In this document: positions 15,504-64,000 of the stretch, one piece after another
Position numbering within the stretch: the stretch's first letter is position 1
Layout of the letters: every line of letters begins with the position of its first letter
From: Thermoplasmata archaeon
GTDB taxonomy: Archaea; Thermoplasmatota; Thermoplasmata; UBA10834
Reading direction: 5' to 3'
DNA: 64,000 nt
NCBI GenBank assembly: GCA_021789945.1
Contig: JAJYIS010000001.1
Span: forward strand, 13,476 to 77,475
Program-made: the position numbers and the translations under genes
Notes under the pieces: generated by a model
Told to the model about the DNA's origin: nothing
Databases searched by the model: none
Seen by the model: only the letters and a program-made list of their open reading frames with translations

Positions 15504-15508
15504 AGAAG

Positions 15509-15601
15509 TAGCCCCGGGAGGATTCGAACCTCCGTCGCAAGATCTCTCCTTGCGAGAAGCAATCCAGAGTCTCGCATGATTGACCGCTACACTACGGGGC
15601 T
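15509..15601 (-). tRNA. tRNA-Gln(CTG) with a 20-nt intron at 37/38 (intron 15544-15563)
   Basis: Acceptor AGCCCCG/CGGGGCT, anticodon arm CGAGA-CTCTGG[intron]A-TCTTG, T arm GGAGG-TTCGAAT-CCTCC; canonical bulge-helix-bulge. Confidence 0.95.
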
Positions 15602-50431: not shown

Positions 50432-50503
50432 GGGCCGGTAGATCAGCGGCAGATCGCCCGCTTGGCATGCGGGAGGTCGCGAGTTCAAATCTCGCCCGGT
50501 CCA
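50432..50503 (+). tRNA. tRNA-Ala(GGC), no intron, CCA not encoded; probable island integration site
   Basis: GGGCCGG/CCGGTCC acceptor with G3-U70, CCCGC-TTGGCAT-GCGGG, GCGAG-TTCAAAT-CTCGC. Confidence 0.95.
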
Positions 50504-50506
50504 CAC

Positions 50507-51538
50507 TCACGCATAGCCAGACAAATATTTTTCCGTTTCAATTAAATCGTTTTTGCCCGAATTGATTTTTCGAGCTTTTTCAGAGGGATTAACCGAGCCC
50601 CAAGCCCGGTCTATCTCCTCCCGCACCATGGCGTCCGATTTCCGGCAGTAGTAGGTTTCCGTGGTTTTAGTCGACGAGTGCCCCATGCTTTTCGACACTG
50701 CATCAATCGTTGCCCCTCGATCGAGAAGAAGCTGCCCGTAGGTCCGTCTCAGGCTCCTGATGTCGAACTTCACGCCTGACAGTCGCTCCACCTGCCGCTT
50801 GAGCGTGCCTATGCCCTGAGCCGTGTAGAAGTCCATTCTCCCTCTGGGAGAAATGCTGGGGATGAGCGGAACGACATCCTCGCGAGCACCGTGCTCATAC
50901 AGCATCACTGCCCTGGCAGTCATGAAGCGGACCACATGCTCTCTTGCTGGCTCTGGTATGTAAACTACCCTCTTCTCACCCCAGCTCGCCTCGCCCTTCG
51001 GGTGGCGAACCCTGATGGTCCAATTCTGCATGTCTAAATCTTCCAAGTGAGCGAGCCTAAGCTCACTCATCCGGAGGCCACAGTAGCCATAGACGGCCAT
51101 CAGGAAACATGCCACACGGCCCCTCCACCCAGGGATTACGCCCGCGGATGCCATTATCTTGCGGAAGTCATTCTCCGACAATGAGGGCAGCCTCCTGACG
51201 CGCTGCATGGGTATGGCCTGCTTGTTCTGCTCCTGGAGGTTGGCAATTACGGGGTTCCCGCACCACTCGAGGAAGACCTTGAGCTGACCCATCTGCTTGC
51301 TGACTGTGTTGACACTCAAGCCCCTCTCTCTCATTTGCCTCAGCAGCTCCGTCACCTCTAGGACGCCTATCTTCGTCGGGTCGTCTGTCCGGACCTTCTT
51401 CTCGTTCTTCAGCCGACGCAAATCCAAGCCGAGCCTCCTCAGCTTCCTGAGCGTTTCCGCGACGGTCGAGGGGGAGTAGAACCCCTCGGTCTCCTTCGCG
51501 TAGCGCGCTAGAAGCATCAGGTAGGGGTATCTGCCCAT
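50507..51538 (-). CDS. Tyrosine recombinase/integrase
   Basis: GLRMSEL (R), HPKG (K), IRSLRRTYG (R) and MGHSSTKTTETYY (H, Y); ATG 51538 preferred over the ORF-track start. Confidence 0.92.
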   Translation of the reverse strand: MGRYPYLMLLARYAKETEGFYSPSTVAETLRKLRRLGLDLRRLKNEKKVRTDDPTKIGVLEVTELLRQMRERGLSVNTVSKQMGQLKVFLEWCGNPVIANLQEQNKQAIPMQRVRRLPSLSENDFRKIMASAGVIPGWRGRVACFLMAVYGYCGLRMSELRLAHLEDLDMQNWTIRVRHPKGEASWGEKRVVYIPEPAREHVVRFMTARAVMLYEHGAREDVVPLIPSISPRGRMDFYTAQGIGTLKRQVERLSGVKFDIRSLRRTYGQLLLDRGATIDAVSKSMGHSSTKTTETYYCRKSDAMVREEIDRAWGSVNPSEKARKINSGKNDLIETEKYLSGYA

Positions 51539-51810
51539 GGATTGACCCCTCCGCTTCCGGCCGGGCTTGCGCCGATGCTGGCCCACGGAGGCCTCGCCAC
51601 TGCCGCTTTCTGCCTGTTGGACGGCATTGGATCGGCGCTCCACGCCCTGTTCGGGCGCAGGCCTGGAAGAGCTTGCAGAAAGTTTAACCCTTGCCATTCA
51701 GACCAGCACCAGAATAGAGCAGTTTGGCAGGATCTGCGATGGAGGGAGGAAATGCGAGAATTGGAATGCTGGCACGGTAACCGGTCTGTTTGCGTTTCCA
51801 GTGAATCGAT

Positions 51811-51860
51811 CCACGTGGAAAGATTTGGGGGGTATCGGAGCGTGGAATCTTTCCACATGG
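51811..51860. repeat. Inverted repeat CCACGTGGAAAGATT-N20-AATCTTTCCACATGG (14/15 match)
   Basis: Read directly; the same 15-mer recurs at 53200-53214. Confidence 0.85.
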
Positions 51861-52117
51861 GTAGAAAATGAGCTCGCGGCGATACCCTGGATCGAGTTGG
51901 CTCTCGACCCCCGCGCAGTCTTTCCATATGGCTGGACTCGTAGCAAGAAGGAGTGGCGACGATGCCAGACCCGAGAATTTGTCACTGTCTCTGGAGGTTT
52001 TGGAATTCATCAAAACCAAGCGCTCCGATCCTGGACAGTCAATGGGATGAAAACGACACGCCAATCCAGTCTTCGTGGATTGGCGCCCTAAGGGGTTTGA
52101 ACATCATATGAGCCAGC

Positions 52118-52309
52118 TCACTCGTTCTGGTCCTCGACCTCGGAGTCGTCTTCCTCCTCTTCGCCCTCATCTTCGCCGTCGGGGAAGCTCTCGATGTACT
52201 GCAACACGGCGTGGAGTACCAATTCGCGAACGGTGATGCCCATTGCCTTGGCGGTTTCCTTCAGTTGCTCAACAATCTCGCCTTCAAATTCTACCGACAC
52301 ACTACCCAT
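52118..52309 (-). CDS. CopG/ribbon-helix-helix-like small DNA-binding protein with an acidic tail
   Basis: SVSVEFEGEIVEQLKETAKAMGITVRELVLHAV beta-alpha-alpha pattern. Confidence 0.65.
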   Translation of the reverse strand: MGSVSVEFEGEIVEQLKETAKAMGITVRELVLHAVLQYIESFPDGEDEGEEEEDDSEVEDQNE

Positions 52310-52608
52310 GTTCTTCTCCTGGGCCGTAGCCCGCAGGAGGTTATCTCTGTCCGTTGGATATGTTGGAGGTGTGACGGTTTTTCCATGCCTTGCGCGGAAT
52401 TTGACCACGCTACGTCCTACGCAAAGGCAAGCAAGCTGGATGCCATGAGTTAATCCAAGATCATTGGTCGAGAATTGGATTAATTACGTAATATTGACCG
52501 AAAAGTGATTTCCGTTCTTCCTATTTCCTTTTCTACCTTTCTTCCCGTTTTCCCAGTCACCAGTGCTGACGCTATCGAAGTCTTCTTCCTTGCATCGATC
52601 CTTTCACA

Positions 52609-52968
52609 TCAAGCTGAGGATCGTTCTGCTGATGCCTCCTTGACCGATCCGCGGTACTGCCGCAGGTAGCAGTTCCAGCACAATCCCTTCGCTTTGACTG
52701 CAGCCTTTCCGCACCTAGTGCAGAGATGGCCAGGGCAGTACTTCCTTGGATGCTGCACTGGAGTTCCACATATCTGGCAACGATGCTTCTTCCTTTCCGC
52801 ATCGCGCACTCTCTTCTTGCGCTTGGATCGCTTTCGAATCACGTCCTGCATTTTCCAGAGGCATCGACGCGAGCAATAAGGTGAGTTCGCTCGTTCCTTC
52901 GGTTTATTGGCGCCGCAGATTATGCAGAACGGCCATAGGTCGCGACTCTTGCGTCTGTTGATTGCCAT
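52609..52968 (-). CDS. Basic multi-zinc-finger hypothetical protein
   Basis: CIIC..YCSRRC, CQIC..YC, CTRC..CWNC; Arg/Lys-rich. Confidence 0.6.
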   Translation of the reverse strand: MAINRRKSRDLWPFCIICGANKPKERANSPYCSRRCLWKMQDVIRKRSKRKKRVRDAERKKHRCQICGTPVQHPRKYCPGHLCTRCGKAAVKAKGLCWNCYLRQYRGSVKEASAERSSA

Positions 52969-53194
52969 ATCGAAGCACCTCCGACTTCTTTCTCGTGAGG
53001 GCCAAAAATGCCCTCTTCGCGCTAAAAGGATCAAACAGTTCGAATGGTTCTGTTTCAAAGATGCTCGAATCGTTTCTGAAGTTGCCGTGCAGGCTATTTG
53101 GAAGTACTCTGTCCGTGTAGATTAAACCTACGCTGGACGGGGGTATGTCTAGCCACATCGAAAGACAAGCGTAGCAGCTCTGGCCGAAGTCAGG

Positions 53195-53214
53195 TCTTTC
53201 CACGTGGAAAGATT
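53195..53214. repeat. Perfect 18-bp palindrome TCTTTCCACGTGGAAAGA containing a copy of the 51811 motif
   Basis: Read directly. Confidence 0.85.
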
Positions 53215-53364
53215 GCTCAATTCTCGATCACGATCATGAGAGCCGGAAATGGACATCGACGGCCACTCCGCGGCTTGCATGGCTCTGCGTTCATACCATC
53301 GCTCCGAAAGTAACTGTGGCGAGTTTTCTTTCTAATTGAACGGGATTAGTCAATGTTTAGCTCG

Positions 53365-53382
53365 AGCGAGTTCAAGGCTCGC
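53365..53382 (+). repeat. Direct repeat copy 1, AGCGAGTTCAAGGCTCGC (tRNA-Ala T-arm-like hairpin)
   Basis: Exact 18-nt match to 58867-58884; 15/17 match to tRNA-Ala 50479-50495. Confidence 0.85.
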
Positions 53383-53549
53383 CGGTCTCAACTTGGCATG
53401 GCGAAGAATGTCATTTCGACCTCGTCGAGGTCGAAGTGAGTTCATGGCATTTGTCCCTCTGATGGAGAATCAGGAGTAGATCGTGTGAGATGCCAGTGAA
53501 TATTGAAACGAAAGGAAAGAGGTTTCTCCCAGGAGATACTACTCGCTCA

Positions 53550-53834
53550 TCACCAGCAGGGACAGGATCCATAGCTACCATTGTATCCGCCGTTAGTGTA
53601 GTACATCGGGCAGTTCCAGGATCCGTAGCCGCCTGAGGTTGGGGTTCCATAACCGCCCATCATCCCACCGCCCATGTGGCTTCCGCCCATCATGCCGGAC
53701 CCTCCACCGTAGGCTCCACCGTAAGCCGTCGGTGTCGCGGAGCCTGCAGCCCCTAGACCGGAAGTCAAAGCGATTCCTGCAACTACAACCAAAGCCACTG
53801 CCGCGATGATTGCGAACGCAATTGATGTCTTCAT
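53550..53834 (-). CDS. Small exported/membrane Gly-Met-rich protein with C-terminal Cys motifs
   Basis: N-terminal hydrophobic helix; GMMGGSHMGGGMMGG, WNCPM and SCPCW; GGAGGTG SD. Confidence 0.72.
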   Translation of the reverse strand: MKTSIAFAIIAAVALVVVAGIALTSGLGAAGSATPTAYGGAYGGGSGMMGGSHMGGGMMGGYGTPTSGGYGSWNCPMYYTNGGYNGSYGSCPCW

Positions 53835-54002
53835 TCCTTGTTCACCTCCTTTGTTGGCCGGTTTGTCTAACCGGATTCCCGCTACTGCCATTTGGTTGAA
53901 GAGGCACTTAGACCTATCCTGAAAAGCACTGAAAGCGCTTTCATCTGGTGAAAACTAAGCTGAAAATGCCCATCCGTGCAGGATTGAGGAGTCTCTGTCC
54001 AT

Positions 54003-54410
54003 TCAAGATTCACCCCTGATCTTCCTCGCGCTAGTTCCGCTTGTTCTCACGGGGCACCACGGTTGCTGCTTTGCTCCCCGCGCGGATACCCATTCCAGAA
54101 GGGGGATGAGGCGTTCCCTTAGTTCGCGGCCGTCACGAGTGAGCGAATACTTGACGCTTGGAGGGGACGTAGGCAACACTTCCTTGCCCACGAGGCCAAG
54201 CTTCTCGAGCTTCTTCAGGGTATCGGAGAGGGTCTTTGGACTGATACCCTTTAGCTCCTCCCTGAGTTCGTTGAATCGCTTCACGCCCTCGTTACCAAGG
54301 ATCGCGACGACCAGCAATGACCACTTCTTGCCAACGACATCCATGAGGCCGAATAGAGGACAGAAACAGAACTGTTCCGCACACTCATTCGCTTCGGCCA
54401 AGTGTATCAA
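54003..54410 (-). CDS. HxlR-family winged-helix regulator
   Basis: CPL...VVGKKWSLLVV...RFNELREELKGISPKTLSDTLKKLE. Confidence 0.9.
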   Translation of the reverse strand: MIHLAEANECAEQFCFCPLFGLMDVVGKKWSLLVVAILGNEGVKRFNELREELKGISPKTLSDTLKKLEKLGLVGKEVLPTSPPSVKYSLTRDGRELRERLIPLLEWVSARGAKQQPWCPVRTSGTSARKIRGES

Positions 54411-54491
54411 GTATCGTGTATGAAACTGCCGATATTAATAGGTTCATCTCCAATACTTGGTTCAGAAAATGAACCGCCCGAAGGCCGGAAC

Positions 54492-56399
54492 ATGCCGGAA
54501 GATGAACGCTCTGAGAGCATCGAAGGGAAATGGTACTCCTACCCACCGTTGCGAAATGCAATGATATCCGGAATCTTGACCGGACTGACCTTCGGATTGC
54601 TGCTGTCGGGCCTCGCATCTCTCTCTCTTGGAGTCTACATCTACACAATTGCCATGATCATAGGAGGATATCATTGGGGCAGAGAGGGAATAGAGCGCCT
54701 TGTGGAAGAACACAAGATTGGCATCGACATATTGATGCTCGCGGCAGCGACTGGAGCTGTCATCCTCGGAGTCTGGGAAGAGGCGGCCTTTCTCGTCTTC
54801 CTGTTCGCTGCTGCCGAGGGCATCGAAGAATTCGCCTATGCAAAGACCAGGTCGTCTATCAGGGCACTGCTAGATCTTGCACCAAAGGAAGCTAGGATTC
54901 TGAGGAATGGTTCGGAGGAGATGATTCCGGCTAGTGGGCTGAAGATTGGTGACATCTTCCTCGTGAGAGCAAGCGAAAGTATTCCGACAGATGGTGTTAT
55001 CCTCCGCGGGACATCGAGCGTGAATGAAGCTCCTGTGACAGGAGAGTCGAATCCTGTTGCGAAAGAACCGGGCACGAAGGTCTTTGCAGCGACGATCAAT
55101 CTCGACGGATTTCTCGAGGTCAGGGCGACCGCTTCCTTTCTCGACAACACCCTCTCAAAGATCATTCACATGGTCGAGGAGGCACAGGAGAGGAAGGGCA
55201 AGGTGCAGATGTTCATCGAACGGTTTGGAGATATCTACAGTCCCATCGTGCTCCTCTCCGCGATGCTTCTTGTGGTCATGCCACCCCTATTTGGTGATTC
55301 ATCCTCGATATGGGCCATGAAGGCGGTCGTCCTTCTTGTCGCTGCGGCGCCTTGCGCCCTAGTAATGTCTACGCCTGTCGCCATTGCAGCCGGCATTGGC
55401 AGAGCGGGAAAGAAGGGGGTTCTCATCAAGGGAGGCGTTCACCTTGAGTCCTTGGGCAAGATCAGAGTTGTGGCTTTCGACAAGACTGGCACTTTGACGA
55501 GAGGCGAGCCTGCAGTCACTGATGTTGTTCCATTTGAAGGAGACGAGTCCAGGTTGCTGGATTTGGCGTGCAGTGTCGAGAGGTGTTCAGAGCATCCGAT
55601 AGCCAAAGCGATAATGAAAAGGGCGTCCACCTCAAATGCGACTAAATCCCAAGGCTCCAATTTCTGTGCTGTTCCCGGCTTTGGCGAGAAGGCGAAGGTG
55701 GGCGATTGCACGGCGTACGTCGGGAAGCCCGAGCTCTTTGGAAAGGCGGCTATTGGTCCAGAGATCTGGGAGCGGATGAAAGCGCTTCAGAAGGAAGGCA
55801 AGACAACGGTGCTCATCGGGAAAGAGGACTCGGTCTATGGAATTGTTGCGTTGAGAGATGAGATCAGACCGGAGGCGAAGGCCGCACTCGCCAGACTCCG
55901 TGCCAGAGGCGTCAAGACCATTATGCTTACAGGAGACAACCCCGCCACCGCCGCGGCTGTTGCCAGGGATTTAGGAATCCAAGAATTCAGAGCCAACCTG
56001 AAGCCCGGAGACAAGATTGAAGCAATCAAAACCTTGAAAGAGAAGTATGGGGAGATCTTGATGGTGGGAGATGGTATCAATGACGCTCCTGCACTAGCAC
56101 AGGCCACGGTTGGAGTTGCGATGGGGACCATTGGCACCGATGCGGCCATTGAAGCGGCGGATGTCGCCCTAATGGCGGATGATCTTGGGATGATTCCCTT
56201 CGCGCTTGAATTAGGCGATAAGGCCAGAAGAATCAGCAGGCAGAACATCATCTTCTCGATCGCGTTGCTTTCGGTTATGATACCTTCTGCCCTGATTGGC
56301 TTGATCACAATAGCGGGGGCGGTAATATTGCACGAGACCTCAGAACTCATTGCAGTTGCCAATGGAATTCGGGTCGGAAATGATTCCAAGAATGTGTGA
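54492..56399 (+). CDS. Heavy-metal P1B-type ATPase (P1B-4-like: APC and HETS motifs, no N-terminal metal-binding domain)
   Basis: TGES, APCALVMSTP, DKTGT, SEHP, GDGIND and LHETSE motifs. Confidence 0.93.
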   Translation: MPEDERSESIEGKWYSYPPLRNAMISGILTGLTFGLLLSGLASLSLGVYIYTIAMIIGGYHWGREGIERLVEEHKIGIDILMLAAATGAVILGVWEEAAFLVFLFAAAEGIEEFAYAKTRSSIRALLDLAPKEARILRNGSEEMIPASGLKIGDIFLVRASESIPTDGVILRGTSSVNEAPVTGESNPVAKEPGTKVFAATINLDGFLEVRATASFLDNTLSKIIHMVEEAQERKGKVQMFIERFGDIYSPIVLLSAMLLVVMPPLFGDSSSIWAMKAVVLLVAAAPCALVMSTPVAIAAGIGRAGKKGVLIKGGVHLESLGKIRVVAFDKTGTLTRGEPAVTDVVPFEGDESRLLDLACSVERCSEHPIAKAIMKRASTSNATKSQGSNFCAVPGFGEKAKVGDCTAYVGKPELFGKAAIGPEIWERMKALQKEGKTTVLIGKEDSVYGIVALRDEIRPEAKAALARLRARGVKTIMLTGDNPATAAAVARDLGIQEFRANLKPGDKIEAIKTLKEKYGEILMVGDGINDAPALAQATVGVAMGTIGTDAAIEAADVALMADDLGMIPFALELGDKARRISRQNIIFSIALLSVMIPSALIGLITIAGAVILHETSELIAVANGIRVGNDSKNV

Positions 56400-56416
56400 G
56401 AAAGGTGACCCTAGTT

Positions 56417-57094
56417 TCAGGTTTCAATCTCGATGCGGACCTTGTTCGTCATTCCGTATCTCAATTTCGAAACAACCCCTTTCTCCTCAAGTCTGTCTAT
56501 GACCCTTGATACTTTGGCGTCCGACATCTTGGTTCTGGGCATCAAATCCTTCTGGAGAGCCTCACCACCAGAATCCATCAATGCTTTGAACATGGACCTT
56601 TCGTCCCCACTAAGAAGGCGAAGAGTGAGGTAGTAAGTCGATTGATGACCATTATCGGGCACGGGGGCAATCGATCCCTCGGCGGCAGCCCGAAGACCGG
56701 TTGATGCGGGTTGATCTGACACACTAGGAGTTGTTCTGGCCTGGGAGCTGGAGAGAATGTCTGGTTCTGACAGGACTCTCCCGGGCGCTCCGATTGCAGA
56801 AGTAGAGGGCGTTGAAGGAATAGTAGGAATTGCCGATTGAGGCAATGGCTCGTATTCTTGCCTGAAGAGGAGGTACATCAGTCCCGATGTGAACATGAAA
56901 GCGCCAATAATCGCGATTAGGAGGTTAGTGGCAGTATATGCAGTCATTGTGCTTGGCATCTGGTCCATCCACATGCCACTCTGAGTCGTAGTGCGTGTTG
57001 TCGTCAAGATAAACGAGATTACCATCAGGATGAGACCCGCAATCACAAGCCCTAATGGCAGAACGTTGTGTTCCCAGTTCCTTCTTTGGACCAT
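56417..57094 (-). CDS. Membrane-anchored HTH protein (COG2512-like)
   Basis: Two TM helices, a Pro/Ser/Thr linker and C-terminal LSGDER...QKDL...SDAKVSRVIDRLEEKG..YGMTNKV. Confidence 0.8.
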   Translation of the reverse strand: MVQRRNWEHNVLPLGLVIAGLILMVISFILTTTRTTTQSGMWMDQMPSTMTAYTATNLLIAIIGAFMFTSGLMYLLFRQEYEPLPQSAIPTIPSTPSTSAIGAPGRVLSEPDILSSSQARTTPSVSDQPASTGLRAAAEGSIAPVPDNGHQSTYYLTLRLLSGDERSMFKALMDSGGEALQKDLMPRTKMSDAKVSRVIDRLEEKGVVSKLRYGMTNKVRIEIET

Positions 57095-57529
57095 CTCCGC
57101 TTGCCTCCTTTCAACTCCCTGCCGTCCTATCCGACTTCGTGCAGAAGATGAGGATCATCTCTCCGGTATGAATATCAGACCACGCTGAGGGTGAGATGCC
57201 TTCCGCATACGATACCTAGGAGCCACAATATTAGTGCCTTTCCCTTTACGCTTTCTTAGTTGACCTCGATGTCGGGCTCAAGATCCATCAGATCTGGGGC
57301 CGGAACTGACTGGGTGGACGAAACAAAGAAGACTCTTCATTATCGTCAGAGCGTGAGGGAGCGCCCCAAACACTCTCAGTTCTTTCCTCCACCAAGGGTC
57401 TGCATGTGAAGTTCTCAGGAGATTGTTCCGAAGGACAACCGCACGAAGGGTGAGGGACCAGACAACGGAAGTATTCGAATCGTGACAAGAATTATGCGTG
57501 CTACCATGGATAACGGAAAGGAGGCAGAC

Positions 57530-58627
57530 ATGGCCACCGCAGTCAAGAAGGCTATCCAAGAGCTAGAGCAAGGAATGAAGCTGGGGAAATGCAAGAAATG
57601 TGGATGCATGCGGGATTTGCTGCAGACATTGGAGGCCTCTCTGCCAGGCCTGAACAGTGAAGAGGCGTCGCTGCTACTTGAAAGAGTCGGGTTTTGGATC
57701 GGTCAGCTCCAGGAGACACAGTATTCCTGTCTAGGCTGCAAACACTGTCACCCTTCCGTCGCCACGAATGCACTCAACAAGAAGTTCCCGGGGATTGATG
57801 CCGGGGACGTGTGCGGCTCGTTCGAGGTGGGCGAGGGGTGGCCTGCTGTGCCTGGCGAATATCATGTGCTATCTCGTGACTCAAGCTCCGCCGTTGCGAT
57901 TTCCACTCTAGCGAATGCTGAGCTGGCGGACGACCTGGCGGATCGATCGCCTAAGGGATTGGCAATCGTCGGGAAGACCGAAACGGAGAACATAGGCATC
58001 GACAAGGTGATCAAGAACATTGTGACCAATCCTTCGATTCGCTACCTGGTCCTATGCGGCGATGAACCGAAAGGACACATGAGCGGCCACACTCTGGAGA
58101 AGCTATGGGAGAACGGTGTTGATGACAGCATGAGGGTAATCGGCTCATCAGGCAAGAGACCGATCCTCAGGAACGTCTCCAGACATGAGATCGAGGCGTT
58201 TAGGAAGCAGGTGAAGGTCATCGACATGATCGGCGAAGAGAATCCGCAGGCCATCATTGCAGGAGTGAGCGATCTTGCAGGCAAGATCCTGCCCTCGGCC
58301 TCCCGCAATTGCGGCAAGTCTGTGAAGGTACCACCAGGTGCTGGAAAGGCTATCGAAGCGAAGAAACATAAGGACACCAACCTAGACAAAGCTGGATACT
58401 TCGTCATTATACCCCAGGGTGAAGGTCTCATTATGGTTGAGCACTACTCTTACGAGAACAAGTTGCTGAGAACCCTAAGAGGGACGAATGCTAGAGACAT
58501 CTACTTGACCGTCATCGAGAACGGATGGGTGACCGAGTTGAGCCATGCTGCGTATCTGGGAAAGGAACTGACTCTGGCTGAACTATCGATGAAGTCGGAT
58601 GTCAGATATGTTCAGGACAGGGCATGA
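57530..58627 (+). CDS. Cys-rich N-domain + MtrA-like cobamide-binding domain + DUF4346 fusion protein
   Basis: WPAVPGEY, AIVGKTETENIGIDKVIKNIVTNPSIRYLVLCGDEPKGHMSG and IEAFRKQV (MtrA-like); DKAGYFVI...SHAAYLGKEL (DUF4346); GGAGG SD before ATG 57530. Confidence 0.85.
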   Translation: MATAVKKAIQELEQGMKLGKCKKCGCMRDLLQTLEASLPGLNSEEASLLLERVGFWIGQLQETQYSCLGCKHCHPSVATNALNKKFPGIDAGDVCGSFEVGEGWPAVPGEYHVLSRDSSSAVAISTLANAELADDLADRSPKGLAIVGKTETENIGIDKVIKNIVTNPSIRYLVLCGDEPKGHMSGHTLEKLWENGVDDSMRVIGSSGKRPILRNVSRHEIEAFRKQVKVIDMIGEENPQAIIAGVSDLAGKILPSASRNCGKSVKVPPGAGKAIEAKKHKDTNLDKAGYFVIIPQGEGLIMVEHYSYENKLLRTLRGTNARDIYLTVIENGWVTELSHAAYLGKELTLAELSMKSDVRYVQDRA

Positions 58628-58866
58628 GGCTGGGGAATTGCGTTGAATGGAGAATGATAGCGTATCATGGACAGGTCATCACACATGGGTCCCAACAACG
58701 AGCTGGGCAGAGACCATGGCATGTGAGTCTACCCTTGGGCTTCATCACCAAGTAACGTGCGAGGGCCTGCAGAATCCGATTCTTGATAGAAGATGAGAGG
58801 GTGATCTGGAGACGATTCGCTGAGATTCCTCTTTGACTCGATCAAAAAGAACGAATGTCTGACTCT

Positions 58867-58884
58867 AGCGAGTTCAAGGCTCGC
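58867..58884 (+). repeat. Direct repeat copy 2, AGCGAGTTCAAGGCTCGC, within an extended hairpin TAGCGAG-TTCAAGG-CTCGCTA
   Basis: Exact match to 53365-53382. Confidence 0.85.
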
Positions 58885-58900
58885 TAAGTCCATCTGTCCT

Positions 58901-59266
58901 CTAATCGCACTCAGCTAGCGCCTTTGTCCCTCGGGGAGTTATCGAATATATCATCCAGTTCTTAGTCCTCCTCGAAGAGACTAAACCAGCTCTCTCGAGA
59001 ACGTTGAGATGGTAAGACAGCTTGGAATCAGACAACTCTGCAATCCGCTTTAGTATGCAAGGGCAGAGATCCACTATGGAGAGTGCCCAGAGCAGTCTGA
59101 GCCGGACCGGGTCCGAGAGGGCCTGGTGTCGCCTAGCCATACTCTTCATCTTCGACTCCTTGGGAAGTCGCTCGATGAGCTTACTAAGCCCGCCTAGCTT
59201 GGAGAGTCGCACGGCAACCTTCTCCGGAAGCTCCAGTGGAGTTCCATCCTTTCCGCAACAGAGCAT
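58901..59266 (-). CDS. arsR: ArsR/SmtB-family repressor
   Basis: ALSDPVRLRLL, DLCPCIL and SKLSYHLNVLERAGLV motifs; N-terminal CC. Confidence 0.88.
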   Translation of the reverse strand: MLCCGKDGTPLELPEKVAVRLSKLGGLSKLIERLPKESKMKSMARRHQALSDPVRLRLLWALSIVDLCPCILKRIAELSDSKLSYHLNVLERAGLVSSRRTKNWMIYSITPRGTKALAECD

Positions 59267-59307
59267 TTCAAAATCTTTTGAAACCACAAACCCTTTATAG
59301 TCGGCTG

Positions 59308-59333
59308 AGTATTTCAAGTTTTGTAGAAATACT
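59308..59333. promoter_or_regulatory. Candidate ArsR operator AGTATTTC-N10-GAAATACT, just downstream of a TTTATAG box
   Basis: Perfect 8-bp inverted repeat between divergent arsR and the fdx-acr3 operon. Confidence 0.45.
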
Positions 59334-59425
59334 GAGGGGAATCAAATGGGCCCCGCATTCGCTGCAAATCGGGTTTCGTCGGTCGGTGAGCTGATGGATT
59401 CGATATCTCACAGGAGGGCGAAGGT

Positions 59426-59713
59426 ATGAGCAAGCGTATGTACAACGGACTTCCCAGAGAAGAGATTCCATGGTTCCCCCGAGTCGATTCTAAGCGCTGC
59501 ACTGGCTGCGGTACCTGCATCAGGATCTGTCCGAACAAGGTCTACCGAGAAAGAGACGGCAAGCCCGAAGTCGCGGACCCCTTTGGCTGTGTGGTGGGTT
59601 GCTCTGGCTGTGTGCCCCAGTGCCCGGGACAGGCAATCTCATTTCCATCCCTGATCGAGCTCAGAGATGTCCTGAAATCTCTCGAGACAAAGTACGCCAA
59701 GAAGGCTAGGTGA
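59426..59713 (+). CDS. 2x[4Fe-4S] ferredoxin
   Basis: CTGCGTCIRICP and CVVGCSGCVPQCP motifs. Confidence 0.9.
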   Translation: MSKRMYNGLPREEIPWFPRVDSKRCTGCGTCIRICPNKVYRERDGKPEVADPFGCVVGCSGCVPQCPGQAISFPSLIELRDVLKSLETKYAKKAR

Positions 59714-59717
59714 TATC

Positions 59718-60851
59718 ATATCAACTTCAGGAGAAAGTTCCGGCGATGGCGCAGTCCCCGCGAAGAAACAGCTTTCCTTCCTGAATAAGTACCTGACAGT
59801 TTGGATCTTCCTGGCGATCTTCATAGGTGTCGGTCTGGGAGCAGCTGTCCCCGGCATTGCCGACGGCCTCAACAAATTGAGTATTGGAACCACATCCATT
59901 CCTATCGCCATTGGCCTAATTCTCATGATGTGGCCCCCGCTGGCCAGAGTGAAGTACGAAGAACTTAGGGAGATTCCCAAGCAGCCGGAGGCCAAGTTGA
60001 TGTTCGGCACATCGCTGGCCCTGAACTACATTGTTGGCCCCTTGCTTATGTTCGCATTGGCATGGATCTTCCTTCCTGACAACGTCTATTTCCGCATCGG
60101 CTTGATACTCGTCGGCGTGGCACGCTGCATCGCTATGGTCATTGTCTGGAACGGCCTCGCCGATGGGGATGCGGAATACGCGGCGATCCTAGTGGCACTC
60201 AACTCGGTCTTCCAGATTGCCCTATACTCCTTCTACGCCTACTTCCTAGTGGCCATCGCATCAAACTGGGTGTCCCCCGGCTCGGGCACGGAGATAAGAA
60301 TCGGAGTGTGGGAGGTCGCGCAGAGCGTCCTGATATATCTGGGCCTCCCGTTCGCGATGGGCATAGCGACGAGATATCTGCTGCTGCCAAGAAGAGGAGC
60401 CGATTGGTACAACAACAAGCTCATGCCAGTACTTGGTAGGGTTTCCCTCCTCGCGCTGCTGTTCACAATCGTCGTGATGTTCGCCTTCAAGGGCGAGTAC
60501 ATCCTCGACCGGCCGCTAGACGTCGTCAGGATCGCGATACCCCTGGTGTTCTACTTCGTCATAATGTTCTTCCTGTCATTCGGACTGTCGATCAAGCTCA
60601 AGTTTGACTATCCGCATGCGACGGCGCAGAGCTTCACCGCGGCCAGCAACAACTTCGAGCTAGCCATCGCGGTGGCCATAGGCGTGTTCGGCATCGGGTC
60701 GTTGGTAGCCTTCGCTGCCGTGATTGGACCTCTGGTGGAGGTGCCGGTCTTGATTAGCCTAGTGAACGTGGCTCTCTGGATTAGGAAGAGGTACTATGGC
60801 GCGGACGGGAGGCTTCTGTCTTCCCCAGCCGCTCCTGCCAGAGGCGAATAA
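59718..60851 (+). CDS. acr3: ACR3 arsenite/antimonite efflux transporter (start appears to be ATA)
   Basis: LSFLNKYLTVWIFLA, MMWPPLARV, ARCIAMV, SNNFELAIAVA and GPLVEVP motifs. Confidence 0.93.
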   Translation: MSTSGESSGDGAVPAKKQLSFLNKYLTVWIFLAIFIGVGLGAAVPGIADGLNKLSIGTTSIPIAIGLILMMWPPLARVKYEELREIPKQPEAKLMFGTSLALNYIVGPLLMFALAWIFLPDNVYFRIGLILVGVARCIAMVIVWNGLADGDAEYAAILVALNSVFQIALYSFYAYFLVAIASNWVSPGSGTEIRIGVWEVAQSVLIYLGLPFAMGIATRYLLLPRRGADWYNNKLMPVLGRVSLLALLFTIVVMFAFKGEYILDRPLDVVRIAIPLVFYFVIMFFLSFGLSIKLKFDYPHATAQSFTAASNNFELAIAVAIGVFGIGSLVAFAAVIGPLVEVPVLISLVNVALWIRKRYYGADGRLLSSPAAPARGE

Positions 60852-61021
60852 TGATCTGTGAGACCTGCCGCCTCCATCCCGACTGCGAGTTGGGGCCTCC
60901 GAAGGAGGGTGAGACTTGCCCCTACTTCCAGCCGAAGGAGACGCTCCAATTGACATTCACGGAAGAAGGATGGAAGATGGGGGAGTGAAAGAATCCGGAA
61001 TAAGAAACGAGTGTGAGAAAA

Positions 61022-61660
61022 ATGGAAAACGAGAAGCAGGTAAAGCTGCCAGATTGGACATGGGAGTTCCACGGCCACCGCTGCCCGTTCATGCCGATAG
61101 GGTACCGGATGGGGGCGATAGCCTTGCGGGAACTCGGGATCGAGAAAGTCAAAGACCACGGCGCGTTCGCGCTGCCGGAGATGGGCGTGGGCCATCCGCA
61201 GACGTGCATGATGGACGGGGTCATGTCTGCGACCGGATGCACCTACGGGAAGCTGATGATGGAGCGGCTGAACTACGGCAAGGTCGCGAGCATCGTACAT
61301 GCTCCCGGGAAAGGTGCGGTAAGGGTCTACCTCGAGTCCGACTTCCAGGACGAGCTGGGCAAGGAGGAGTTCTTCGCCTACAGGAAGCGAGGCGTCGAGC
61401 CATCGGACATACCTTCTGAGGTGACCGAGCGTGCGGTGAAAATCGTGCTCGAGACACCCGAGGACGACATGTTCAAAATCGAGAAGCTGCCGGACTTCAA
61501 GTTCTCCAGGCCGAAGGGTTCTTTCGCGAAGGTGAAGTGCTCGAAGTGCGGGGAGTACGTCTTTGAACGCTATGTCCGGACTGTTGAGGGCGAGCCCGTG
61601 TGCATACCCTGCTCTGGGTTCACAGAATCGAGACTTGATGCCCTAAAAGCTATACAGTGA
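61022..61660 (+). CDS. FmdE-family protein with C-terminal zinc finger
   Basis: FHGHRCP, CMMDGVMSATGCTYGK, CSKCGE...CIPC motifs. Confidence 0.88.
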   Translation: MENEKQVKLPDWTWEFHGHRCPFMPIGYRMGAIALRELGIEKVKDHGAFALPEMGVGHPQTCMMDGVMSATGCTYGKLMMERLNYGKVASIVHAPGKGAVRVYLESDFQDELGKEEFFAYRKRGVEPSDIPSEVTERAVKIVLETPEDDMFKIEKLPDFKFSRPKGSFAKVKCSKCGEYVFERYVRTVEGEPVCIPCSGFTESRLDALKAIQ

Positions 61661-61672
61661 GAGGAATCGAGA

Positions 61673-62446
61673 ATGGACCTCACGCTCCTGGCCGCCATCA
61701 TATCCGTCCTTCTGATATCCCTAGTGTTCTCGATGTTCGGCCAGGGGGGAGGATCTCTCTACACCCCCGTCCTCTTCCTCCTGGGGTATGCCACGCTTGT
61801 GTCGATCTCCACCTCCCTGGTCCTCAACCTGGTGACCGCGTTCTCGGCGACTCTGATCTACTACAGGAACAAGATGGTGGACCTGAAGCTCTCGCTGGCC
61901 TTCATTCCGGGGATATGCATAGGAGCACTCATAGGAGGAGCCTCCACGAAGTACGTGGACTCGACTCTCCTGATGTGGCTGTTCGTGGTGTTCCTAATCG
62001 GTGCCGGCGGCAGGATGGTGTACACCTACTGGGAGAAGACGAGGGAGAATGAATCATGTCCTCTGAAGTTAACGAATCCGATGTTCGCGCTGATTACGGT
62101 CTTCAGCTTCGGTGTCGGGATCATGTCCGGGCTCCTCGGAGTGGGGGGCGGGATAGTCATAGTGCCGTTCCTGATATTCCTGTGCAAGCATCCGACCAAG
62201 GGCGCTGCGGGCACTGCCGCCTTTGTAGTCATTTTCTCCTCCATATTTGGCGTGATAGGACATTCTGCCGTGGGACGCCTGGACACTGGGCTCATTCTCG
62301 CGACCGTGGTGGCGGTGTTCACCGGGGCGCAGATAGGCGCGCGCTACATGGTCAAAGCGAAATCGGATATGATCAAGGTCGGGTTCGGACTAATAATGTG
62401 GCTGTTCGCAGTCCAGCTCGTGCTGAAGCTTCTAGGATACTTGTGA
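61673..62446 (+). CDS. TauE/SafE (TSUP) family sulfite exporter
   Basis: FGQGGGSLYTP and SGLLGVGGGIVIVP repeats; 8 TM-like segments. Confidence 0.9.
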   Translation: MDLTLLAAIISVLLISLVFSMFGQGGGSLYTPVLFLLGYATLVSISTSLVLNLVTAFSATLIYYRNKMVDLKLSLAFIPGICIGALIGGASTKYVDSTLLMWLFVVFLIGAGGRMVYTYWEKTRENESCPLKLTNPMFALITVFSFGVGIMSGLLGVGGGIVIVPFLIFLCKHPTKGAAGTAAFVVIFSSIFGVIGHSAVGRLDTGLILATVVAVFTGAQIGARYMVKAKSDMIKVGFGLIMWLFAVQLVLKLLGYL

Positions 62447-62488
62447 AGGATGGATTGGGAGAAAATGGTGAAGAAGAGAGGTGATTGA

Positions 62489-62932
62489 GTGCCAGAAGAA
62501 AAACAGATGGAATGGAAAGCCGGAGAGAATACGCATGAGAATTTGATATACGCCTGCTTCGGAGGATTGTCAAACACTGGGATAACGGCTACGCTAGCAA
62601 GCATGGAAGCCGTCAAAGACCTTGGGTTGAGGAAAGTGGGAATCGGTTGCCTTGCAGGGCTTCCCATCGAAGTGGAGCCTGTCCTTGGCAAGACTAACGC
62701 GGCAAAGAAGATCATAACGGTTGACGGCTGCCCCTTCGAATGCAGCAAGAAGGTCGTCGAACGGGCCGGGTTCAAGATCGCGAGAAGCATTGTGCTTGTA
62801 AGAGACATCGGAATGAAGAAGAAGCCGTTTCATGAGGACATCGGAGGAGATTTGAAGGGCATGATGAACTACGTCTCCACAGAAGACGTCAGGAAGGCGA
62901 AGGAACTCATAATCCAGGCTATCAGAGAATAG
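62489..62932 (+). CDS. DGC-domain putative zinc-binding protein
   Basis: IYACFGGLSNTG, GCLAG and TVDGCPFECSK motifs. Confidence 0.85.
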   Translation: MPEEKQMEWKAGENTHENLIYACFGGLSNTGITATLASMEAVKDLGLRKVGIGCLAGLPIEVEPVLGKTNAAKKIITVDGCPFECSKKVVERAGFKIARSIVLVRDIGMKKKPFHEDIGGDLKGMMNYVSTEDVRKAKELIIQAIRE

Positions 62933-62975
62933 AAGAACCACGGAAATTCGCACACGAGAAAGGAAGGCGCACGCG

Positions 62976-63938
62976 ATGGCGAAACTCAACATAGATAGCT
63001 CCGAGTGTACGCAATGCGGCATATGCATTGATATCTGCCCAAACAACGCGCTCGAGCTCCGAGACGTCGGACCCGAGCTGATGCATCCCGAGCTGTGCAC
63101 GGAGTGCGGCGTGTGCGAAGACCAGTGCCCGTCGCGCTCAATCACCGTCCTCCGTCGCCAACAGTTGTCGATGCCCGGAGCGAAACCGACCGCAGACCTC
63201 CAATGGAATGCCGCATCAGAGCAGATGGTGTCGCTGCTCGGACTGGCGAAACCGCCTGTGGGGATATGCCTCGTGAAGAGCGCAAGCGATGTACCGCCTG
63301 GATTCGTGACGATGGACTTCCCCATCAGACACTGCGTCTCGATCCACATGGCATCGCTTGGAGCGGCCATCTTCGTCCCAGCGCAGCAGCATGCGTGCTC
63401 CGCCGGCAAGGCGGCTCTTGGAATCTCTGAGTTGCCCGACAAAGTCAAGTCCGGTAAGGTCCCTTACATGCACGGACTCGCATCAACCGAGCCAGCTGCC
63501 GCGCGCACCATGGAGGAGATACCAAAACTCCCCATAGGGACTTGTACAGGTACCGTGGTCGCACCTCTGGCCTGCTTCAAGCTTCCACCAGAGGTCGTGG
63601 TGCTGACCTGCTTGCCAAAGCAGGCAATGTGGGTTGCTAACTCGCTGCTATTCGAGACGGGGGGACCTAGGATAACGGCGAACTTCGCTGGAATGCAGGC
63701 ATCCTGCGGCGACGTTACCGCCCTTCCCATCCTTACAGGCAGTGTCAATTTCAGCCTTGGGTGCTACGGATGCCGCTCGGCAGGGAAGCTGAAGGACGAC
63801 GAGATGTATGTGGGAATCCCGAGGGCAAGAATAGAAGAGGTGGTCTCCGGTCTACAAGGCCTTCGGAGAGCGATGGGAAAGTTGGAGCGGACACAAAGAC
63901 CCGGAAACCCCATGGAAGCTGGGAACAGAGAGGAATGA
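62976..63938 (+). CDS. 2x[4Fe-4S] ferredoxin-DUF169 fusion protein
   Basis: CTQCGICIDICP and CTECGVCEDQCP; DUF169 motifs PPVGICL, ACSAG, QASCGD and SLGCYGCR. Confidence 0.85.
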   Translation: MAKLNIDSSECTQCGICIDICPNNALELRDVGPELMHPELCTECGVCEDQCPSRSITVLRRQQLSMPGAKPTADLQWNAASEQMVSLLGLAKPPVGICLVKSASDVPPGFVTMDFPIRHCVSIHMASLGAAIFVPAQQHACSAGKAALGISELPDKVKSGKVPYMHGLASTEPAAARTMEEIPKLPIGTCTGTVVAPLACFKLPPEVVVLTCLPKQAMWVANSLLFETGGPRITANFAGMQASCGDVTALPILTGSVNFSLGCYGCRSAGKLKDDEMYVGIPRARIEEVVSGLQGLRRAMGKLERTQRPGNPMEAGNREE

Positions 63939-64000
63939 AAATGGACGATAGAACGCTGGAATTGGTTGGAATAGCTGCTTCGGTCGCAGGGCACTGCCAG
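63935..64000 (+). CDS. Carboxymuconolactone decarboxylase/AhpD-like protein, 3' truncated by window
   Basis: MKMDDRTLELVGIAASVAGHCQ; ATGA overlap with the DUF169 gene. Confidence 0.65.
   Translation, partial: MKMDDRTLELVGIAASVAGHCQ

Follow-up and report, generated by a model that had tools for sequence, protein, structure and literature searches.

The window, i.e. the whole stretch of DNA analysed here, covers 64,000 nucleotides (nt) of a Thermoplasmata archaeon and corresponds to positions 13476-77475 of contig C110 in a 2.01-Mb, 152-contig assembly, the genome being a metagenome-assembled genome (MAG) with a completeness of 88%. The locus in question starts with the gene for tRNA-Ala(GGC), which is followed by the gene of a tyrosine integrase and by two direct repeats resembling the T arm of this tRNA, the latter enclosing a cassette of metal-resistance genes. 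The order is the tRNA, a putatively minimal integrase element (50505-53390), the metal-resistance cassette without an integrase (53391-58892) and further accessory genes, with the individual features (ORF, open reading frame) being as follows:

50432-50504, plus strand: gene for tRNA-Ala(GGC) (ARAGORN; Rfam tRNA, 66 bits)
50479-50504, plus strand: 3' part of the tRNA gene, the attL/attB core, GCGAGTTCAAATCTCGCCCGGTCCA
50505-50560, minus strand: P' arm, an inverted copy of the element arm (TTTAATTGAAACGGAAAAATATTTGTCTGGCT...), which overlaps the integrase coding sequence at its 3' end
50507-51697, minus strand: intact tyrosine integrase of 396 aa (Pfam PF00589, E 1.7e-13)
51698-53229, minus strand: small-ORF module of the integrase element, conserved in comparison with the contigs L090/L091
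53316-53390, plus strand: attachment module 1, consisting of the P arm, the mimic AGCGAGTTCAAGGCTCGC and the degenerate acceptor remnant CGGTCTCA
53391-58787, both strands: integrase-less cargo cassette of five genes (Pfam, NCBIfam)
58788-58892, plus strand: attachment module 2, consisting of a diverged full-length P arm, the identical 18-mer and the degenerate remnant TAAGTCCA
58893-64000, no strand assigned: further accessory DNA with ArsR, ACR3 (TIGR00832), FmdE-like, TauE and Fer4-DUF169 genes (Pfam, NCBIfam)

The repeat pair and its attachment module

The 18-mer AGCGAGTTCAAGGCTCGC occurs exactly and on the plus strand at 53365-53382 (copy 1) and 58867-58884 (copy 2). The first-pass annotation had claimed such an exact direct pair as well as its likeness to a tRNA T arm, and both claims hold: the 18-mer found no match in 100 dinucleotide-preserving shuffles, even with two mismatches tolerated, and the T arm of tRNA-Ala(GGC), GCGAG-TTCAAAT-CTCGC at 50479-50495, agrees with the repeats in both stems and in five of the seven loop bases. 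Compared with the last 25 nt of the tRNA, the copies (from 53366 and 58868) exhibit 76% and 80% identity, respectively, in direct orientation. On the 3' side, copy 1 continues with CGGTCTCA, copy 2 with TAAGTCCA and the tRNA with CCGGTCCA. The genome-wide scan for GCGAG-N7-CTCGC, which the same annotation had proposed as a check, returned the motif with a TTCAA loop at just three loci of the whole assembly, all of them here—the two copies and the T arm of the tRNA. Since the motif is confined to these places and no T run was found after either copy, it is neither a dispersed repeat nor a terminator.

The direct likeness between the two copies reaches about 13 nt upstream of the 18-mer (27/31 positions), and a profile made from foreign members only stretches it to ~70-105 nt. 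The repeats are more than bare T-arm mimics, each being the core of an attachment module of ~100 nt, in which a conserved upstream arm is followed by the T-arm mimic and a remnant of the acceptor strand. The consensus reads ..GGTTTG..GACGCCTTGGTGCAAT....TTTGATTGAACCGAA....GAATGTCTGGCTCGA-GCGAG-TTCAAnn-CTCGC-CCGGTCCA-C and is succeeded by unrelated sequence. The nhmmer profile, prepared from 27 foreign modules without the window sequence, was run against the whole genome; its top matches were 53316-53386 (E 2.2e-14) and 58788-58892 (E 1.6e-12, profile positions 7-110 of 112), and the 3' end of the tRNA was matched at E 1.4e-4. It should be pointed out that the profile also matched the minus strand at 50560-50515 (E 0.0026), i.e. 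an inverted copy of the arm within the 3' end of the integrase gene. This inverted arm, TTTAATTGAAACGGAAAAATATTTGTCTGGCT, agrees with the foreign arms in 25 of 32 positions, with a score of 34 against a shuffled maximum of 22, and the match recurs in homologous integrase genes (L097-L099). Module 1 itself shares 81% identity with the module on contig C76 of the same-genus MAG G007 and 80% with the attR of the element on contig L092. The 2.9-kb integrase element would end on the right in module 1, an attR-type site, and the cassette in module 2.

Arm-like modules of the form TTGATTGAA..N..GAATGTCTGGCT are present also elsewhere in the same genome, at C99:20403-20465 (minus strand), C79:2361-2402 (plus strand) and C68:~3235 (plus strand), where they join cores resembling the 3' ends of other tRNAs, e.g. 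..GGTTCATGGCCCGGCGGCCGCA. Two integrase paralogues were likewise recognized—C51:15-1004 beside tRNA-Arg(TCG), with 40% identity, and C47:10276-11313 beside tRNA-Val(GAC), with 33%—both sharing the end-to-end layout with the tRNA gene. As the arm-like modules are attached to other tRNA-like cores and the paralogues adjoin other tRNAs, the arm appears to be a feature of a superfamily and the core its target-specific part.

Concerning the integrase, the end of tRNA-Ala and its stop codon are 3 nt apart and the R..K..RxxR..H..Y residues are seen in its translation; the gene remains an intact ORF of 396 aa when integrated, as it does in seven homologous contexts. Within the small-ORF module, the ORF 52118-52408 has a weak CopG/RHH-like Pfam match and the ORF 52609-53058 a weak zinc-ribbon-like one, and palindromic CCACGTGGAAAGA sites are found there (repeats I3, I7, I19 and I20). 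These two ORFs are bracketed by palindromic TCTTTCCACGTGGAAAGA sites at 51804-51865 and 53195-53214, the positions of which are kept in L090/L091 and which are likely operators. The segment 50400-53229, covering the tRNA, the integrase and the small ORFs, exhibits 83% identity over 2834 nt to L090/L091; past 53229 the window diverges into the arm of copy 1, and L090/L091 go on with more than 8 kb of cargo. The identity followed by this divergence argues for 50505-53390 as a minimal, cargo-less family member of 2.9 kb with copy 1 as its attR. Relatives of the same genus and the same family retain the tRNA along with its left flank (77-84% identity), the sequence following the tRNA is different in every relative, and the T loop AAAT together with the same T arm was present in 20 of the 20 tRNA-Ala(GGC) genes extracted from relatives.

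Family members in other genomes and the probable position of exchange

MAGs of Thermoplasmata and metagenomes of sediments yielded the module ~30 times, always in the orientation of tRNA-Ala(GGC) and often with two to four copies in a row. By the pattern scan, two MAGs and 22 of 24 metagenome contigs were found to contain it, the conserved arm being present every time; the scan of viral contigs gave no match. The sole informative match of the cassette search was the 74-nt segment 53314-53387, found in the already mentioned G007:C76, where the same upstream arm is followed by AGCGAGTTCAATGCTCGCCCGGTCCA and then by 18 nt equal to the 3' end of the integrase gene, as after the tRNA in the window. 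The second module-bearing MAG is RBG_19FT_COMBO_56_21. Close homologues of the integrase are found only in metagenomes (63-92% identity), the best one in its own order having 40%. All those with 83-92% identity adjoin tRNA-Ala(GGC), and in seven of seven contexts the close homologues abut this tRNA with the junction CCGGTCCA followed directly by CACTCAYGCATAGCCAGAC.

Two contigs contain a whole element each. That on L092 (11.3 kb) consists of the tRNA, an integrase with 88% identity, restriction-modification genes and the module with the loop ACTG, whereas that on L095 (10.7 kb) comprises the tRNA, an integrase with 92% identity, an MmeI-like system and the module with the loop AAAT. Arrays running in the direction of the tRNA are represented by L067 (the tRNA, then modules at 3419 and 7074), L070/L073 (modules at 4516 and 5763 after the tRNA) and L077 (modules at 967, 2837 and 5306 after the tRNA), with two to three modules each also in L074, L082 and L084; their cargo genes vary widely and have no relation to those in the window. 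Both repeats of the window belong to this family, and on many other contigs homologous modules form the ends of complete integrase elements and the borders between cassettes, so the view of the first-pass annotation that the two sites are integrase attachment sites bounding cargo has been corroborated, as has the marking of cargo boundaries by copies in related islands, which it had proposed as a check.

As to the cargo, L092 encodes an Eco57I-like system with a methylase and an Alw26I-like restriction-modification system, and L090/L091 encode giant Kelch/NosD surface proteins. One small element, with an integrase of 83% identity, ORFs of 58 aa and 309 aa and an IS110 transposase, is present in L097, L098 and L099, having three different distal neighbours in the three contigs.

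The junctions can be observed directly by comparing contigs. L066 and L069 are identical over ~372 nt upstream through ...GCTCGCCCGGTCCA (99.5% over 397 nt) and unrelated from the next base, and in the pairs L070 and L084 as well as L066 and L088 the upstream arms differ and the sequences are identical from the core onward. The sequence located directly 3' of the tRNA in the genomes G001 and G003 is the one that follows the terminal module in L071 and L084, an arrangement corresponding to the attB/attR relation. Remnants of the integrase end, 5-124 nt long, follow the cores in G007, L080, L067, L095, L092, L077 and G009, i.e. in seven contigs or genomes, which points to frequent loss of the integrase by deletion within the family. 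Besides, a second T-arm-like relic, (G/A)CGAGTTCAATTCTGGA, occurs 60-80 nt after the tRNA or the terminal module—in L014 (G001) and L016 (G003) ~60 nt past tRNA-Ala, and at L080:1156 and L084:10203—and may have been left behind by a different family of elements using this tRNA.

The loops carried by the elements are AAGG, AATG, AAAG, AATT, ACTG or AAAT, whereas every tRNA-Ala examined keeps AAAT, including the attL sites fused to the integrase end. If the exchange took place in the loop or 5' of it, the tRNAs would inherit the loops of the elements, and since none do so, the exchange is expected 3' of the loop. With the homology breakpoints falling after CCGGTCCA, it would be confined to CTCGCCCGGTCCA(C); concerning the exact position, the midpoint of the inverted GTCTGGCT boxes in the attP-like site would lie between CTCGC and CCGG. 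In the window, the exchange segment is degenerate and unlike between the copies, being CTCGCCGGTCTCA in copy 1 and CTCGCTAAGTCCA in copy 2.

The mechanism proposed on this basis is the following. The attP would start with a P arm of ~70 nt containing the boxes TT(T/G)A(A/T)TTGAA and AATGTCTGGCT, continue with the 26-nt mimic of the T arm and the 3' acceptor strand, AGCGAG-TTCAAnn-CTCGC-CCGGTCCA, and end with the inverted copy of the arm overlapping the 3' end of the integrase gene. The integrase would recombine it with the tRNA somewhere inside CTCGCCCGGTCCA, whereby the tRNA would retain its own loop and come to lie beside the integrase gene (attL), and the arm with the mimic, carrying the element's own loop, would land at the far side (attR).

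The cassette, its probable history and the rival explanations

The genes of the cassette are the following:

53550-53891, minus strand: small membrane ORF
54003-54410, minus strand: HxlR regulator
54402-56399, plus strand: P1B heavy-metal ATPase (TIGR01525, 582 bits)
56417-57094, minus strand: membrane DUF7343 HTH protein
57482-58627, plus strand: MtrA-like/DUF4346 protein

In the segment 53391-58866, tblastn revealed no remnant or pseudogene of the integrase and Pfam only cargo and regulators; neither was an integrase remnant found after copy 1 or copy 2 by tblastn and the profile search, the latter detecting no P' arm at the left border of the cassette, i.e. after copy 1. None of the 40 relatives has the cassette, and neither it nor its genes turned up in relatives or the other arrays; a P-type ATPase gene adjoins the nearest MtrA-like homologue (72% identity), the contig of which has no att module. 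The GC content falls from ~0.62, typical of the host, to 0.51-0.55 past roughly position 52000. In the stretch 53391-53460 behind copy 1, the 9-mer CTTGGCATG, equal to the region of the tRNA-Ala anticodon loop, and a GAGGTCG..GAGTTCA stretch were noticed; an older tRNA-fragment relic at this place (CTTGGCATG with a degenerate tRNA half) was rejected, its scores being within the shuffled range.

Based on the above results, it appears probable that the locus consists of integrative elements stacked in tandem behind tRNA-Ala(GGC), at its 3' end. According to the simplest history, an older family member residing at the tRNA would have lost its integrase, giving rise to the 5.5-kb metal-resistance cassette with copy 2 as its attR, and a newer, minimal element would then have entered the regenerated tRNA site and pushed the cassette distally (tandem accretion); which of the two arrived first, and that the cassette once lost an integrase, are inferred. 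With the arm and the 5' core retained in both copies, excision of the cassette by the resident integrase would in principle be possible, either alone or together with the integrase element—similarly to the cis-mobilisation of the cis-mobilisable elements (CIMEs). Present activity seems doubtful, however, given the degenerate exchange segments of copies 1 and 2 and the missing P' arm at the left border of the cassette.

Several points weigh against this scenario. The status of the genome as a MAG, with its limited completeness and fragmentation into many contigs, leaves a misassembly formally possible. The 18-mer is perfect in both copies despite the much-diverged arm of copy 2 and the degenerate adjacent 8 nt, and such an uneven conservation is not explained by simple neutral decay. 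With no integrase remnant after the copies, the earlier integrase of the cassette is only presumed, and neither an attP circle nor an empty site or a deletion allele of this island was present in the assembly or among the pattern matches. Finally, the contig stops before the far end of the island is reached, and the candidate native flank, seen in G001, G003, L071 and L084, is absent from the assembly.

Among the alternatives, an active cassette system, in which the resident integrase excises, captures or shuffles a 5502-bp circle between matched sites in an integron-like, tRNA-anchored array, is considered unlikely. It would account for the arm and the identical 18-nt 5' core kept at both sites, for the common occurrence of integrase-less cassettes bounded by modules, some of them lying directly by the tRNA with no integrase remnant (L070), and for the same cassette being found behind different neighbours; the presence of one module at the 3' end of each cassette is, moreover, formally like an ORF with its attC. 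The serial insertion at the tRNA explains the switches of neighbours equally, however, and the remnants of the integrase end show that integrase-less units arise by deletion. The first-pass annotation had rested its nested, integron-like scheme on the T loop as the spacer setting the choice of partner and on the two sites as a spacer-matched pair. Neither idea could be upheld, since the loop, varying among the elements in contrast to the AAAT kept by the tRNAs, is not the region of exchange, and the segments 3' of it differ between the copies (CGGTCTCA versus TAAGTCCA), both being unlike CCGGTCCA. The scheme as a whole is fitted better by tandem accretion, given that the integrase is unlike IntI (integron-integrase model: 40 bits, cutoff 265), the five genes, with regulators of their own, are on both strands and the inverted P' arm of the integrase end has no counterpart at the left border of the cassette; no junction of a circle or a deletion was present among the exact-pattern matches.

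A broader version of the same idea, a tRNA-Ala-anchored cassette platform in which integrase-less units, each ending in one module of ~100 nt, are captured, stacked and re-sorted by a single integrase adjacent to the tRNA, whether it acts in cis or in trans, as a functional archaeal analogue of the integron based on the mimicry of a tRNA, is tentatively given a small chance. In that case, the perfect 18-mer next to a variable 3' half would mean that the exchange takes place right after GCTCGC with non-canonical partners.

It is highly improbable that the copies are just displaced and mutated 3' fragments of the host tRNA with no element-borne module. Their likeness to the final 25 nt of the tRNA, downstream of which they lie in the same direction, is what island ends are usually recognized by (PMC4383910), but the loop of tRNA-Ala(GGC) is AAAT, never AAGG, in the 20 relatives and in all the metagenome genes, the GG and the upstream arm are common to both copies, and the arm, conserved in ~30 foreign sites, is absent from the tRNA. 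Hardly tenable is also the idea of the module as a functional tRNA-like RNA, i.e. a minihelix or a processing signal ending the cassette transcripts, despite the T-arm hairpin with the acceptor-like 3' strand and the alignment (MAFFT) of TGAACCGG of the arm to the 5' acceptor strand of the tRNA, TGGGCCGG. There is no Rfam match at either copy; RNAalifold on 31 members gives only the T hairpin and four pairs; the T-stem variants ATGAG, ACGAG and CCGAG..CCCGT are uncompensated, with no covariation; and the module acts as a homology breakpoint between contigs. Chance, a terminator, for which a short 5-bp stem-loop might be taken, or a dispersed repeat unrelated to cargo borders can practically be dismissed in view of the shuffles (0/100), the three loci genome-wide, all of them here, the lack of a T run and the profile E values of 1e-12 to 1e-14.

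Concerning the DNA past copy 2, it is patchy in relatives, and no further att module was found distal to copy 2 up to the end of the contig, 2.3 kb past the window. Its Fer4-DUF169 segment (62462-63948) shares 88% DNA identity with G025, a genome of a different family, which points to a recent lateral transfer of the distal accessory genes. In the search for the right flank, G014 and G003 pointed to C49 of the same genome near 11332, where no att fragment was present; a tRNA-like match at C49 13009-13036 was rejected as a chance one, being within a coding sequence and having no T loop. Elsewhere in the window, tRNA-Arg(TCT) (15508-15601, minus strand) was called at 94 nt, i.e. over the standard length of a tRNA, and may be intron-bearing.

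The tandem stack, as interpreted here, defines the architecture of the attachment site, the target and the likely region of exchange for a family of integrative elements that had not been described before and that moves metal-resistance, restriction-modification and surface-protein genes among uncultured sediment Thermoplasmata. The module may serve as a compact signature for mapping island borders, tandem stacks and integrase-less remnants in MAGs, where island finders needing one integrase per unit would miss such stacks and remnants. Because the loop of the mimic is unlike that of the tRNA, the family also offers a natural experiment on the position of strand exchange by an integrase targeting the T arm. 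Should mobilisation of the integrase-less units be borne out, archaea would possess a system of cassette capture.

Comparison with known systems

The stacking of tandem islands at a tRNA is a known kind of arrangement. An attP in the T-stem region is common, as are tandem islands, the Islander class containing 1836 islands with such an attP and 125 tandems (PMC4383910), and tandem integration along with integrase loss has been documented in archaea (PMC8371274). With the Islander tandem islands the locus shares a tyrosine integrase by the tRNA gene (tDNA), direct repeats of the tDNA 3' end at the ends, the stacking at one tDNA and the exchange in the region of the T stem and the 3' end; the integrase indeed lies by an intact tRNA, the distal repeat of the tDNA 3' end has the same orientation, and the island is absent from relatives. 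In contrast to that class, the repeat here is an element-borne mimic with another T loop, fused to a conserved arm of ~70 nt that has an inverted copy in the 3' end of the integrase gene, and most of the stacked units have no integrase, whereas the Islander tandem rule needs one per unit.

A parallel to the cassette itself is offered by the CIMEs, i.e. integrase-less units that keep their att sites beside an integrase-bearing relative and originate by accretion (PMC5704250). As in the case of ICESt1/ICESt3 from Streptococcus thermophilus, an integrase-less att-flanked unit stands in tandem with an integrase-bearing relative, its excision alone or with the neighbour is conceivable, and its origin may be sought in decay followed by a new integration (PMC5704250); no integrase or transfer genes were found in the cassette by tblastn and Pfam. 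The locus is, however, archaeal and without conjugation genes. The left site of the cassette has no P' arm and, 3' of the loop, each of the two cores is degenerate; both borders have the arm and the 18-nt 5' core, but CGGTCTCA and TAAGTCCA in place of CCGGTCCA.

The likeness to integrons (IntI, attI, attC) consists in variable cargo units, each ending in one module, next to the gene of a single tyrosine recombinase; the anchor is, however, a tRNA gene instead of an attI with a Pc promoter. The integrase scored 40 bits on TIGR02249 (cutoff 265) and 26 on NF011946 (cutoff 435). The module folds only as the 5-bp T hairpin plus four pairs, and its arm is not self-complementary as an attC-type palindrome is, the inverted partner of the arm being on the other side of the core, in the integrase gene. 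Instead of single promoterless ORFs of the same orientation, the cassette contains five genes on both strands, two of them regulators. The identity with an integron is ruled out by the IntI models, the non-attC module and the multigenic two-strand cassette.

With regard to archaeal integrases of the SSV type ("suicidal", partitioning) and the non-partitioning (pNOB8) type, the targeting of a tRNA gene by a tyrosine integrase is shared, and the integrase gene stays intact after integration as in the non-partitioning type; an SSV-type partitioning system is ruled out by the same intactness. As a difference, the att core is located outside the ORF, but the inverted P' arm overlaps the last ~50 nt of the coding region. 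Particular to the present locus and its family are the arm with its inverted twin in the integrase gene, the mimic loop unlike that of the target and the many units without an integrase.

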